Made by a program: the position numbers and the translations under genes
Virus record (IMG/VR): IMGVR_UViG_3300000944_000005
Span: 46,039 to 110,038 of that record
DNA from: a virus
Strand: one strand, 5' to 3'
Length of the DNA: 64,000 bases
The notes under the pieces: generated by a model
What the model was told of the DNA's origin: nothing
The model's input: the letters and a program-made list of their open reading frames with translations, nothing else
Databases searched by the model: none
In this document: positions 13,783 through 46,207 of the stretch, in pieces
How positions within the stretch are numbered: the stretch's first letter is position 1
Layout of the letters: each line of letters starts with the position of its first letter

Positions 13783-13855
13783 TACGGGTGGAGGGACTCG
13801 AACCCCCAACTATTGGCTTTGAAAGCCACTACTCTACCAATTGAGTTACACCCGC
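13783..13855 (-). tRNA. tRNA with anticodon UCA (opal suppressor / tRNA-Trp(UCA)-like)
   Basis: Minus strand GCGGGTG TA ACTC AATTGGTA GAGT A GTGGC TTTCAAA GCCAA TAGTT GGGGG TTCGAGT CCCTC CACCCGT A folds as a standard cloverleaf. Anticodon loop is UU-UCA-AA, variable loop is short, CCA is not encoded. Confidence 0.92.
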
Positions 13856-33141: not shown

Positions 33142-34101
33142 TCAACTTTTCTTCTTTTTCAGGTCGTGTAAACCAGCATCAATCTTCTTGGTTAGTTGAA
33201 AGAACTCTTCCACGTGTACGACTGCGTCACCTTTTCGCTGGATATTTTTTATCGCAGTCAACGCTGCCCTGAGCGATCTACGGAGTAAAATGTCGTCAGC
33301 CATCACTGCACCTTTACGCCCTTTGATTCTAGCGACTACTTCAGGGTTATTGTTAAACTGTTCGAATCGTTTACGTAACTTACCGAATGGTTTATTCGTA
33401 TCAGTAATCCCACTAAAGAATTCTTCTACGTAGGGTGTAGCGTCCACGGTAGAAAATTTTCCATCTTTCAATAAACGGAAAAAGTTGGCAACTGGTTCAG
33501 CGCATTTAGCCACAACCGTAGGATTTGTGTTACTCGCAACTACGGCCAATAGGCTGTCAGTCATGGTAGGGCCGTTGATACTTTCGACTAGTTTATGCCA
33601 CTTCAGTACGTTCGCTGTTGTCTTGATCTGACTGACAGACCAACCACCCATACGCGCCACTTCTTTTAGGCTTAATCCTTGATCAAGTACGAGTACCTCA
33701 ACAGCGCGTTTCCGTGTCCACTCAGGTGGTTCTTGTCGTCCTTGTAATCGCGCGTTAGCCAGTACACGGATAGCGGTAACCGTTTTGATTGAGTCACATT
33801 CTACGATGTATCCGGAAAGTTGAGTACTGTCTGCCATACTGGCGGCAACAAGTCGCTGAATACCGTCGAGAACTTCTAACCCTGCGTCAGTTTTCCAAAG
33901 GATAGGTGACGGGGCCGGTGAACCTGCCTGCATCAAACTGTTGTATTCAAATACAGCTTCCTCACGTACCGGTACTGGTCGAGCCATATTGGTTTTATCC
34001 CAATCCTCAACTAGTTTTTCGAATGTGATGCTGTTGGAGTACCGAAATTCGACTCCCATTTGTCTTAGAAAGTTTTCTGTTCTGTTATCTTTCGTAAACA
34101 A
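33142..34101 (-). CDS. ParB/Sulfiredoxin-like protein with HTH
   Basis: ILWKTDAGLEVLDGIQRLVAA (ParB-like DGxxR) and LSLKEVARMGGWSVSQI (HTH). Confidence 0.65.
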   Translation of the reverse strand: MFTKDNRTENFLRQMGVEFRYSNSITFEKLVEDWDKTNMARPVPVREEAVFEYNSLMQAGSPAPSPILWKTDAGLEVLDGIQRLVAASMADSTQLSGYIVECDSIKTVTAIRVLANARLQGRQEPPEWTRKRAVEVLVLDQGLSLKEVARMGGWSVSQIKTTANVLKWHKLVESINGPTMTDSLLAVVASNTNPTVVAKCAEPVANFFRLLKDGKFSTVDATPYVEEFFSGITDTNKPFGKLRKRFEQFNNNPEVVARIKGRKGAVMADDILLRRSLRAALTAIKNIQRKGDAVVHVEEFFQLTKKIDAGLHDLKKKKS

Positions 34102-37926: not shown

Positions 37927-40900
37927 ATGACGTCGATTCAAACAGTAAGTAAAACATCAGCTATATCGACTGCTGATGTTGGTAAGATCCTCACCGCGAT
38001 CACCGCGGATAAGGTATCAGGGCGTAAACAAAGTAACGTCGACCGAATTGTACAGATCCGGAAACTTGCGCAACAAGGGGGAATGCATACACTGGAACCG
38101 CTTCTCCCGTTGTGTTTAACACTGCAAGGAGAACCGTACGAATTATCGGATCACTTCCCATTCTCACCTGTGTTCCATACGACAATGCCGTCGTCACTGG
38201 TTCTAAAAACTGGCCGGCAGGTTTCGAAATGCGTCCGAAAAAACTCAGTGTTCAACCGTGTCTACGACCAGTACGGTCGACGTAACCGGTTGGAGGATTT
38301 AACACCGGGTCAACTGGTGCAATCTCTGGACATCAAAACTTTTCGATCAGGTAACCGTGAGGTCCTATTTCAACATCGCAACCCGACCAAAACCTGTTAC
38401 TTCATTCGTACCCGTAGGGGTGTCGAAATGGAGTTGGCTGGTACTCATCCGCTGTACACGTACAACGGGTGGACCACAGTGGGTGATCTTGATGTAGGTG
38501 ATCGCATCATTCACGTTCGTCAGGGTGGGAAGTTCGGACGTAAGAAAGTTGATGACCGGCGTATTCGTGTCACAGCCTACATGCTGGGTGATGGGTCTTT
38601 TCGCGGTAGTTACAGTTTTACGGCTAACCGCGAGACAAGCGCCCTTACGGAGATGCGAAGCCTACTTCAAGACTTCAGGGAGTACCCAAAATCAGAGAGT
38701 AAGGCGACTAGTCTTTGCGTTAATCACGACCATGTAATCTACGACTGGTCGCGTGAGGATAACTTACATGGCAAACTATCACACGAGAAATATATTCCGG
38801 ATTGGGTGTTCTTGTTACCACGTGTTAGTACTCGTACGTTTATTGAGCGACTGTGGGCAACCGACGGAATGGTTAAACTGCATAAGTCCAAAGCAACAAT
38901 TTCGTACACGTCTACGTCCCGAGAACTTGTTTACGATCTCAAGTCATTACTTTCAAAGTTCGGTATTCCGACGTCAGTTAAAGAGAGAACTGGTGCTTAC
39001 AAGAAGCCTGACGGGAGGAAAGTTAAATGTCGGCAATACTGGGTACTCCGCGTGGAGACTTTAGCAGGTTGGCGGACGTTTATGTCGGAGTTCAATGTAC
39101 CCGATAAACCAGGATTCGCGTTACCTGAACGAGAACCCAACAACAACCGATACACGACACCGGTTGAAATCGGTGAGCTTATCAGTGATATTGCGGGTGA
39201 GTGTAGAGGTACTAGTAAAACTGCACTCTTACAGTACGGGCTAAGGAAGAAACCAAAGTACCCGCCGTCACGGGCTAAGATGCGACGTTATTTGGATTTC
39301 TTTCAGGCGTATCGTCCAGACCATCCGAGACTAGGTGAGTTTTCGAAATATGTTGACCGATGTGTAGATTGGGACGAGATCGTAGAGATCCGAAATATCG
39401 GTAAACACGAGTGTATCGACATAGAGGTAGCGGATACTCACAACTACTTACTGGACGGCGTAGCCGCACACAATTCGACGTCACTCGCGTCACACGGCGT
39501 GATGCTGGCGAATTGCATCCCCTTTTTTCGAACCCTGTATGTGACTCCACTTTACGAACAGATCCGCCGCTTCTCCAATAATTATGTAAGACCGTTTATT
39601 GATCGCTCACCGATCAAACCTTTATGGTCCGGTACCTCAACAGAGAACTCAGTTCTTCAACGTTCATTCAAGAACTTGTCGATGATGATTTTCTCTTTCG
39701 CATTGATGGATGCGGATCGTGTTCGTGGTATCTCCGCTGATAAAGTTGCGATCGACGAAGTCCAGGACATGGATCCTGATCACCTCCCGATTATTCGTGA
39801 GGTTATGTCACACTCCAAATACGGGTTGTTTCAATTCACCGGGGTCTTGGCCCCGTCCTTTGGTTAGGGCGGGGCCAAGGCCTTGAACATGTAACTCCAA
39901 AATCTTTGGACAACCCTCTCGAAGGTCTCTTCCGTAGATCGTCACAAGCAGAGTGGTTCATCCCATGTCATGCATGTGGTAAGGATAACATCCCGACAAT
40001 CGAGTTTCATATTGATGCGATGATCGGTCCGTATCATGACGAGATTTCAGAGAACTGTCCGGCAACAATTTGTTACAACTGTCGTCGTCCGATCTTTCCT
40101 CGTCAAGGTCGTTGGGTTCATCGTTACCCGCAGCGGCGTTGGAAGATGGCTGGGTATCATGTACCTCAGATCATCATGCCGTTGCACTACAGTTCACCAG
40201 ACAAGTGGGCGACGTTGTTAGCTAAACGGGAGGGTTGGGGTAACACAACTCAAGCGATGTTCTACAACGAAGTCTTGGGTGAGTCTGTCGATGCGGGGCA
40301 GAAGCTTATCTCAGAATCGGAACTACGTGGCGCTGCAAGTCTTCCGTGGAAGAACAACCCAGATGATCCTAGTCGTCTGATGACTGACCGTCTTCAACAT
40401 TACACCAAACGTGTGTTGTCTGTTGACTGGGGTGGTGGCGGTGAAGACGGTACTTCGTTTACAGCACTTTCGTTGTTGGGTATGACACCTACTGGGCAGA
40501 TCCACGTACTTTGGGGTAAACGATTAATCGTCTCACAGGAGCATTTACGTGAAGCTCGTGAAGTGTTTCACTGGTTCCGTGTGTTCAATTGTCACTTGAT
40601 GGCACATGACTATACCGGAGCCGGTACAGTACGTGAGACTGTTATGGTACAGGCCGGTATATCCTTAGACAGTGTGATGGCGATGCGGTTAGTACGATCA
40701 GCATCTGCAGGTTTGGTGACATTCAAACCACCGACTCCGATTCATCCGCGTCAGCACTACAATATTGATAAGACGAGAACGTTACTCTACACATTCCAAG
40801 CGATCAAACTTAAATTGATTCAGACGTTCTCGTACGACTATGTAAATGACGACAACCCAGGCCTTCTCTCCGACTTCCTTGCGTTAGTCGAAGAGAAAGC

Positions 40901-41138
40901 TGAGAGTCGTTTGTCTAGCGACATTTATACGATCACACGTAACCCGATGTTAACTGATGACTTTGCTCAGGCAGTTAACTTAGGTTGTGCGGCGTTGTGG
41001 CACTCTGAAGGTCGTTGGCCGAACTTTGCAGAGGCCGCAGCTATTGGTCGCGTGACCAACAGTCAGATCCTGGCAGCAGGAAATACTGATTATGGCTGGA
41101 ATGAAGATCGCCGAGGCGGGTTCTTCAATATGCCTTAA
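37927..41138 (+). CDS. terL: large terminase subunit (gpA-like), with an intein and split by a 50-nt frame-breaking hairpin at 39844-39893
   Basis: KTGRQVSK|ST Walker A, RVRGISAD, IDEVQD Walker B, FQFTG|TPKS, CHACG/CYNC Zn, FYNEVLG and VDWG nuclease motif. Confidence 0.85.
38230..39474 (+). mobile_element. intein (415 aa) with LAGLIDADG homing endonuclease, inserted in the terminase Walker A
   Basis: Starts at C (K|CVRKNS) and ends HN followed by S (AAHN|STS); HPLYT block B; LAGLIDADG-like YMLGDGS and LWATDGMV. Confidence 0.93.
39844..39893 (+). other. 50-nt GC-rich hairpin coding gap in terL
   Basis: GTCTTGGCCCCGTCCT-TTGGTT-AGGGCGGGGCCAAGGC stem (16+ bp) with an in-frame TAG; removing it joins FQFTG to TPKSLDN. 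Confidence 0.75.
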
Positions 41139-45015: not shown

Positions 45016-46207
45016 GAGTCAAGTTATAACCGATCACACGCAGGATCTTACAGGTAGTGAACAATATCGACTGACCCAGCTTTATCAACCACCGGGGTTC
45101 GTGAAGCAAGCCAGTCATGAACAGCTCTGCGGCGGACCTGAACAAATTCCGCAGCATCTCTACGCAGATCCTCGTAACCGTAACTTTCCTTGTCATACCA
45201 AGGCTGCTACGTGGATGTCCGCACTGTTCTTCGGGGATGTACGCAAAAGTCTTGACCCAGAAGTGGCCGAGACTGTTGCAACAAAACTTATCAAGACCGC
45301 AGGATACTGGAAGATCAGCCCCGAGGTAACAGAACTTTGGGAAAAGATGGCACAAGATGAAGCCCAAGGTCAACCGCGTCTGGCGGATTCGGACTTTGCA
45401 TTCGTGTGGCAGGCCGGTGACCAGAAAGAGCGACATTACCCATTACGTAATCCAACTGAGGTAAAAATGGCGTCTCACTGGTTCGGTGAGCACCATGATC
45501 AGTTCAATTTTGAAGACAAGCATACTGTGGCTCGTAAGATCCTAGTCAAAGCTAGTCAGATGGGCGCCGTTGTTGACAACCAGGAGCTCCTGGATCGTTG
45601 TGCTGGTTTTGGTTATTGCTCGTCAGAAGATGCAGCAAAGGCCTGGGACAAGCGAGCACACTTACTTCAATCTAGTCATCCCGAGTACTCTAATGAAGCG
45701 GTGAAAGTTGCAACTTCATTACGTAGTGCTACTTTTGAAGCACGTGATCAAGGTAGGCGGATCAAGATGGCTGGGTTGATGGGTCAATTCGATCAACAAA
45801 CTCATTTGAATCGGTTGTACGATGACGGCCTTGAACGACCAGAAGACGTACTATTTCAGATTACTGAGAAAGTAGCTTCTGAGTTCTTACAAAGTAACGT
45901 CACAACCACCACAGGCGCCATCTACGAAAAGATGGCCCTGGAGCGGTTGGACATTGAAACAGTTCGTTCGTGGCTTGGTGACGACCTTGCTGAAGCCTGT
46001 GGTGGAATCAGTATGGACGTGGAGAAGTTGGCAGAAATTCTACCAACCCTCCCTCGTCCCGACGCCGAGATGTTCGAACGGATGGCACAAGCAGCTGGTA
46101 TCTCAGTTTACGCTCGCGAGAAGTCTGCTGCCGATCGCGGGATGTCACTGGATGAGATGCGGGCAGCAGCTAAGCAGTACAAACCGACAGAACAACCGAC
46201 ACTTTAA
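45014..46207 (+). CDS. hypothetical protein (possibly virion or morphogenesis)
   Basis: 397-aa ORF with GGAGG SD; recurring KxA(S) peptides. Confidence 0.7.
   Translation: MSQVITDHTQDLTGSEQYRLTQLYQPPGFVKQASHEQLCGGPEQIPQHLYADPRNRNFPCHTKAATWMSALFFGDVRKSLDPEVAETVATKLIKTAGYWKISPEVTELWEKMAQDEAQGQPRLADSDFAFVWQAGDQKERHYPLRNPTEVKMASHWFGEHHDQFNFEDKHTVARKILVKASQMGAVVDNQELLDRCAGFGYCSSEDAAKAWDKRAHLLQSSHPEYSNEAVKVATSLRSATFEARDQGRRIKMAGLMGQFDQQTHLNRLYDDGLERPEDVLFQITEKVASEFLQSNVTTTTGAIYEKMALERLDIETVRSWLGDDLAEACGGISMDVEKLAEILPTLPRPDAEMFERMAQAAGISVYAREKSAADRGMSLDEMRAAAKQYKPTEQPTL

Follow-up and report, generated by a model that had tools for sequence, protein, structure and literature searches.

To our knowledge, efficient long-range translational bypassing has been established experimentally essentially only for gene 60 of phage T4 and its relatives and for the byp elements of yeast mitochondria. 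The 50-nt bypass cassette of T4 gene 60 has a number of described homologues (Manning and Atkins, bioRxiv 10.1101/2022.08.31.505936; PMC5009743; PMC5462505). The byp elements of Magnusiomyces capitatus mitochondria are multi-copy (81 sites), rely on an unused A-site codon, and in some cases lack matched landing codons (PMC5009743). A third precedent is Streptomyces phage Hau3's large terminase gene, which carries two 10-nt inserts, each starting with the rare codon UUA, that were proposed to be bypassed and to sense host tRNA availability (PMC10732093). A literature search revealed no described hairpin gap in a terminase gene beyond these 10-nt Hau3 candidates. The present analysis concerns a 64,000-nt stretch of DNA from an uncultured marine phage, hereafter the window, which belongs to an IMG/VR phage record of 155,625 nt and 47% GC (IMGVR_UViG_3300000944_000005, positions 46,039 to 110,038), and in which the gene of the large terminase (terL) is interrupted by a 50-nt hairpin-forming gap accompanied by a change of reading frame. 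The gap is real, conserved and selected, it lies in an essential gene, and it may be bypassed by ribosomes, which would make it a new natural instance of translational bypassing.

The terL gene, of the lambda GpA type, spans positions 37927-41138 on the plus strand of the window. It is interrupted twice, by an intein in the Walker A motif and by the 50-nt gap, and was called as separate open reading frames (ORFs) of 646 and 410 aa. Upstream of the gap the protein is read in frame 1, ...SHSKYGLFQFTG, through the Gly codon GGG at 39841-43, after which this frame continues as VLAPSFG up to a TAG at 39865-67; downstream it is read in frame 0, as TPKSLDNPLEGLF, from ACT at 39894, i.e. one frame back. 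Both the in-frame TAG and the resumption in the -1 frame had been pointed out in a preliminary description of the window made from its sequence alone, and both hold. A tblastn search with the homologue P0003 maps its residues G226|T227 exactly to 39843|39894, and the locus, like gene 60, consists of two halves of one conserved protein separated by 50 nt with a frame change. The features around the gap are as follows.

39475-39843, plus strand: terL ATPase segment past the intein, frame 1, with Walker B AIDE at 39748 and the core strand LFQFTG, the last Gly codon of which is GGG 39841-43 (translation, tblastn, AlphaFold model of P0003).
39835-39868, plus strand: 34-nt block (TTC ACC GGG, 5' arm, loop and UAGG), identical in the window and in the distant carrier L029.
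39840-39859, plus strand: 5' arm of the 20-bp hairpin, which alone can fold as a 6-bp stem with a CUUG tetraloop (39840-39855).
39844-39893, plus strand: 50-nt frame-breaking insert (coding gap), or, with GGA as the ancestral Gly codon, equally 39843-39892.
39860-39865, plus strand: 6-nt loop UUUGGU.
39865-39867, plus strand: in-frame UAG closing the upstream frame, kept in all carriers (translation, variants).
39866-39885, plus strand: 3' arm of the hairpin, holding five of the six stem positions that vary among the variants, four of them still paired.
39886-39893, plus strand: 8-nt AU-rich tail, free in sequence and constant in length.
39894-41138, plus strand: terL continuation, frame 0, from TPKSLDNPLEG... 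via the nuclease domain to a TAA stop (translation, tblastn).

The presence of a hairpin within the terminase gene, also part of the preliminary description, was borne out by folding. The stem (39840-39859 with 39866-39885) comprises 20 bp, including 4 G.U pairs, and is closed by the 6-nt loop, with a folding energy of -40.3 kcal/mol (z = -7.0; none of 200 shuffled sequences was as stable). It is the most stable 56-nt segment genome-wide (-41.8 against a mean of -10.2, sd 4.0) and occurs as a single copy in the 155-kb genome. The codon GGG 39841-43 pairs with 39882-84 at the foot of the stem, the upper part of which begins at 39844, and the UAG sits at the 3' edge of the loop. The 3' arm alone also folds, as a 6-bp hairpin with a CAAG tetraloop. 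An intrinsic terminator is unlikely, with no U-tract after the full stem and a terminator scan flagging just the small 5' hairpin, where it is followed by UCCUUUGGUU. In both lineages an ATG stands in the upstream frame just past the stem, as ATG-TAA in the window and as ATG-CTT-TAA in L029, and both end at the shared TAA (39892-94), which has one base in common with the resume codon ACU.

Judged against the list of gene 60-type features given by Manning and Atkins (bioRxiv 10.1101/2022.08.31.505936), the likeness to T4 gene 60 proposed in the preliminary description stands as regards architecture and fails for several defining features, which are taken up with the bypass mechanism. As in gene 60, the two halves of an essential phage protein are joined across a frame-shifting non-coding gap of about 50 nt, a stem-loop has a Gly codon at its foot and begins its upper part with the codon that follows, an in-frame UAG lies inside the structure, and the gap's 3' part is AU-rich; stem changes keep pairing, and the element is optional and patchy among related phages. 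There is no sequence similarity to gene 60, and the interrupted site is motif III of a terminase here and a topoisomerase subunit there. With Hau3 the locus shares a frame-disrupting insertion at a highly conserved large-terminase junction, an invariant one that translation of the insert would break. Unlike the Hau3 inserts, this one is a hairpin of 50 nt that has neither UUA in the take-off position nor a rare codon. The byps are likewise short GC-rich hairpin-type coding inserts of tens of nucleotides, made harmless there by bypassing, whereas the terL element is single-copy in its genome, and hairpin-core pattern scans of IMG/VR, JGI metagenomes and GTDB genomes found no copy elsewhere and no multi-copy family. 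These scans returned unrelated GC-rich intergenic or terminator-like hairpins, one of them between two genes in L019.

Removal of exactly 50 nt restores a G-T-P junction, as had been claimed, and the restored sequence matches that of about 170 uninterrupted homologues. In these the pattern x-[TASC]-G-T-P-[KL] is contiguous and its G-T-P invariant, and the alignment, proposed earlier as a check, revealed no homologue that tolerates an insertion or deletion at this site. In the AlphaFold model of P0003, LFQFTG forms the core strand 221-226, with the junction at its C-terminal tip, and this strand follows the Walker B Asp-Glu by 28 residues; going by T4 gp17, we take this position to be the ASCE motif III. 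An insertion at the G-T-P junction therefore looks intolerable on the alignment and the predicted structure. Two shorter homologous ORFs that might have represented further split genes are explained otherwise, P0087/L011 by an intein at the Walker B site and P0035/L012 by a run of N in the scaffold.

The insert is carried by the window, X1, X2, X4, L029 and L030; the independent assemblies that show it number five and come from at least three studies. The X1 Logan contigs, from an algae metagenome that is the probable source sample, are identical to the window. A 318-nt contig from a marine metagenome of a separate study (X2), which covers 39632-39949, shows 10 substitutions and no gaps. The X4 contig, which lacks the intein, has the hairpin up to its end at 39885, and L030, an ENA contig that is also intein-less and is 99% identical, ends within the insert; both stop near 39885-39887, so that the 3' end of the insert is uncovered there. 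The most distant carrier, L029 (an ENA contig with about 85% amino acid identity and an intein of its own), has the insert at the same codon, gap-free and exactly 50 nt long. The protein database contains two N-terminal fragments with the hairpin-encoded ending ...FTGVLAPSFG, originating from L030 and L029. Gap-free agreement among independent assemblies over the parts covered rules out the sequencing or assembly error, in particular the indel, that the preliminary description had asked to be excluded. No insert-less contig or joint was found in four runs, at a depth of 3-9x.

Some irregularities of these contigs were recorded. The X1 contigs break at 39729-47 and at 39891-910, and the right break lies exactly 30 nt past 39880, a position with a G-to-A change in X2, X4, L029 and L030; because of this spacing, the break suggests a co-existing second hairpin-bearing strain in the X1 sample rather than an insert-free variant. 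L030 lacks, at about 300-330 (window position about 39510), one base of a C/T homopolymer when compared with the window and protein P0123, a deletion that fuses an alternative-frame ORF to terL and is probably a low-coverage assembly error. The 3' end of L029 and the C-terminus of P0123 translate to CLLYTSPSPRD, which resembles an untrimmed transposase-library adaptor, and divergence measured at this contig end is therefore slightly inflated.

Comparison of the carriers indicates how selection acts on the gene. The flanks of the insert in X2 and X4 differ from the window by 37 synonymous codon changes and 1 non-synonymous change, each half being read in its own frame, and since the changes are so distributed both halves of terL are under purifying selection. 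Between L029 and the window, amino acid identity is about 84% in the upstream half and above 71% in the downstream half, both halves being open, while four-fold sites differ at 25 of 46 positions upstream and 46 of 76 downstream, which is near saturation. The insert has thus persisted through a long divergence in a selected gene, and therefore some mechanism must read across it.

The insert itself evolves unevenly. All 34 nucleotides from TTC 39835 to G 39868 are identical in the window and L029, at a neutral divergence of about 55%, which makes this block more conserved than the coding flanks (24-32% nucleotide divergence) and conserved beyond the needs of coding and pairing. The block includes the synonymous positions of the codons TTC-ACC-GGG, as would be predicted for a recoding site. 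In the 3' arm of L029, 5 of 20 positions are changed, of which four keep pairing through one-sided transitions and the terminal pair alone breaks; counting all variants, changes affect six stem pairs, five of which still pair (UG to UA twice, GC to GU, CG to UG, and GU to GC). G.U pairs being meaningful on the sense strand only, the constraint acts on the mRNA or on plus-strand single-stranded DNA. The tail differs at 4 of 8 positions in L029, about the neutral rate, with its 8-nt length kept. Each of the three changes within the insert of X2 is non-synonymous in two of the three frames, and in L029 three of the last four frame-0 codons of the insert change their residue. The insert is not under ordinary protein constraint, since its changes are mostly non-synonymous in whichever frame they are read.

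The leading explanation of these data, a non-canonical one that is given somewhat less than an even chance, is that ribosomes bypass the 50-nt non-coding gap within a functional terL mRNA. It is favoured because of the Gly codon at the foot of the stem, the sense-strand structure, the in-frame stop, the tail of fixed length and free sequence, and the conservation at nucleotide level of the putative take-off codons. We infer that the ribosome would decode up to the Gly codon GGG (39841-43) at the hairpin foot, where codon and anticodon would come apart with the peptidyl-tRNA still retained by the ribosome. The mRNA would then slide through, its arms re-pairing as the compact tetraloop hairpins and later as the 20-bp stem behind the ribosome, and this re-pairing would give the slide its direction. 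Decoding would resume at ACU 39894, yielding the native ...FTG-TPK... junction, and ribosomes that fail to take off would stop at UAG 39865. Landing may be determined by geometry, with the re-formed stem at the mRNA exit and 5-6 nt from the stem end to the P-site triplet. A wider proposal, possible and rather doubtful, is that the locus represents a new, independently evolved class of long-range bypass, in which a 20-bp hairpin serves as motor and ruler with no codon-matched landing, and which would be an optional element moving between terminase alleles of related marine phages.

A number of features weigh against bypassing, several of them being points where the locus departs from gene 60. 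No triplet cognate to tRNA-Gly precedes the resume codon, which follows GUA in the window and UUA in L029, and the tail contains no GGN; the gap thus lacks the matched landing codon of gene 60. Since such a triplet is absent and the tail keeps its length only, the resume point would more likely be set by distance than by codon matching. The 47-nt hop between the Val codons GTC and GTA, considered in the preliminary description, is contradicted as a conserved mechanism by the TTA before the resume codon in L029, and the GT at both boundaries of the insert, noted there as well, is not conserved. The sole same-tRNA pair conserved in both lineages is ACC 39838/ACU 39894, and a hop between these would cost the protein its invariant G-T. 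GGG is followed by GUC, an ordinary codon in this genome (15.7 per 1000), neither a stop nor rare, and the UAG follows 7 codons past the putative take-off site rather than next to it as in gene 60. No Shine-Dalgarno (SD)-like motif is located 5-7 nt before the landing site, the nearest G-rich motif being AAGG (AAGA in L029) at 39877-80, 10 nt upstream and within the stem. The upstream peptide ...DMDPDHLPIIREVMSHSKYGLFQFTG is ordinary family sequence that also occurs in insert-less homologues, with neither an N-terminal extension nor a dedicated nascent-peptide signal of the gene 60 kind. The 20-bp stem far exceeds the T4 take-off stem-loop, a compact tetraloop hairpin. Finally, no linked endonuclease gene of the mobA type, which is adjacent in the gene 60 system, was found, eight neighbouring ORFs having no Pfam hit; apart from the LAGLIDADG intein, which lies about 370 coding nt upstream of the hairpin and is missing from the hairpin-bearing X4 and L030, there is no endonuclease.

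Some simpler ways of reading through the gap fail on the sequence. If TAG were a sense codon in an alternative code, frame 1 would end at TAA 39892 with no match to the family, and with TGA read as Trp, frame 2 gives unrelated sequence. The only tRNA gene found by ARAGORN in the 155-kb record (window 13783-13855; genome C1 59821-59893, minus strand) has a UCA anticodon and was called as a UGA-reading tRNA-SeC; because TGA as Trp does not restore the frame, it is irrelevant to the terL gap. A classical -1 frameshift is at best unlikely, for there is no X-XXY-YYZ heptamer upstream of 39840, in agreement with the absence of a slippery site stated earlier, the conserved FQFTG would be lost with a shift upstream of the stem, and a shift inside it leaves no downstream stimulator. 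The main rival to bypassing, which on balance is unlikely, is that the insert is translated, by a short-range recoding event inside the hairpin into frame 0, to give a loop of 15-17 aa that would separate G from T in motif III. Of the candidate events, the clearest is a +5 'stop-hop' that would start at GGU 39862 and pass over UA onto GGG/GGA 39867-69, and another is a -1 slip of tRNA-Pro on C-CCC-G 39851-55. Frame 0 is indeed open across the whole insert in the window and in L029, the length of the insert is conserved, and in GGU-UAG-GG(G/A) the stop is flanked by Gly codons, with the G-to-A change at 39869 keeping the frame-0 Gly codon; the junction, at a strand end in the model, could in principle let such a loop bulge out. 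However, the G-T-P of the homologues is free of indels, the loop would split a motif at the ATPase active site, and neither a slippery heptamer nor, for a shift site within the hairpin, a downstream stimulatory stem is available, which would leave the conservation of the stem unexplained. The frame-0 residues, moreover, vary freely (G to D, E to N, H to A, V to L).

The exact native junction without matched codons, the conserved exon nucleotides beside the insert and the conserved 5' half of the element would all be explained if the 50 nt were cut out of the RNA and the ends rejoined to give ACC-GGN-ACU, either by a self-catalysed mini-element or by a host or phage nuclease and ligase. Such removal is nevertheless improbable. 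With 50 nt the element falls short of the size of group I or II introns, and its boundaries G|GU...UA|A fit neither. Rfam cmscan, with E up to 10, gave two sub-threshold miRNA-like hits alone and no ribozyme or family, the continuous stem has no bulge-helix-bulge motif, and the RtcB and Rnl2-type (PF09414) ligase models found no match in the 155-kb record. A T4 Rnl1 model also found none, its own control likewise giving no match. We know of no mRNA splicing of this kind in bacteria, which counts against it too. The problem might instead be solved at the level of DNA or of the population, where a selfish or protective hairpin insertion would be tolerated as long as minority insert-free copies, arising by precise excision or belonging to co-infecting relatives, supplied terminase. 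Terminase acts in trans, the insert is patchily distributed with carrier lineages that are not sisters, and the presence of the intein in the same gene is similarly polymorphic. This solution is quite improbable, given that the four runs contained no insert-less contig or joint at their 3-9x depth, that no flanking microhomology is available for a precise deletion, and that purifying selection, kept up over a long divergence on both halves of the insert-bearing alleles, argues that these alleles are expressed. The production of two associating polypeptides, one an N-fragment that ends in ...FTGVLAPSFG, the other a C-fragment initiated internally, draws on the TTG at 39906 in the ORF list of the window and seems very improbable. 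A check for an internal start, suggested in the preliminary description, found none conserved, this TTG being CTC in L029. No ATG, GTG or TTG occurs in frame 0 between 39801 and 39906, no SD precedes 39906, the C-fragment would lose the invariant TPKSLDN, and in the model the core sheet of the ATPase would be divided by the split at motif III. That the locus is an artefact, an assembly or indel error, or a pseudogene of a defective phage is scarcely credible: the window does come from a single metagenomic contig rated about 75% complete, but the five assemblies agree gap-free over the covered parts of the insert, the flanks show the 37 to 1 excess of synonymous changes, and both halves are conserved in L029.

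The distribution of the element within the family was examined on a maximum likelihood tree of 58 sequences with 200 bootstrap trees. The carrier lineages are not sisters, since L029 groups with the insert-less P0019 (support 96/96), the nearest sequence to the window is the insert-less P0004, and none of the 200 bootstrap trees unites the two carriers. Because of this the element is regarded as optional, having been either exchanged between alleles or removed by several precise losses, in the manner of inteins and introns. Empty sites in insert-less relatives read ACN-GGA/GGG/GGT-ACN. Beside the insert the two carriers agree in the synonymous states TTC-ACC-GGG and ACT, unlike their insert-less sisters, which points to functional constraint or to a short co-conversion tract.

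The identity of the interrupted gene is supported by several lines of evidence. Homologues of terL are 630-640 aa long and carry PF05876. The protein has the ASCE ATPase motifs and C-terminal nuclease of a GpA-type terminase, including Walker A GRQVSK(S/T), Walker B IDE and motif III TGT. A Foldseek search with the AlphaFold model of the closest insert-less homologue gave the TerL proteins of HK97, Sf6, T4 (gp17) and D6E as top matches (E about 1e-12), confirming a TerL fold for the family at the level of predicted structure. No second terminase gene was found in the 155-kb record. The part of the gene upstream of the segments listed above contains the following features.

37927-38229, plus strand: terL N-extein, frame 1, ending in Walker A ...KTGRQVSK (ORF translation; tblastn with P0003, residues 11-103).
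38230-39474, plus strand: 415-aa LAGLIDADG intein within Walker A, with Cys1...His-Asn and +1 Ser (Pfam Intein_splicing, LAGLIDADG_3).

The intein is polymorphic. It is precisely absent from X4 and L030 (95-99% identical), which read K-S-T-S where the window has the junction GRQVSK|C...HN|STS, and at the same Walker A site the distant carrier L029 contains another intein. A second intein site of the family lies inside Walker B (...DE | C-QDMDP) in proteins P0013, P0020 and P0032 and at locus L011:1595-3000, where the intein region also shifts frame. Because family members carry inteins at this second site as well, terL of this phage clade is a hot spot for selfish insertions.

The terL locus offers a compact case, directly clonable with about 100 nt of context. 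Its natural variants separate the constrained parts, which are the 5' arm, loop and UAG, the pairing of the stem and the length of the tail, from the free sequence of the tail. Without the matched landing codon that is regarded as central to gene 60, the locus could show whether re-folding of mRNA alone sets the resume site. Genes of this kind are split by gene callers, and essential phage genes are mis-annotated as broken as a result. Outside the window, at about 33437-33492 of genome C1, a tandem 18-nt repeat (GGTGGTGCCACCTGTTGA-like) forms the second most stable local fold genome-wide.

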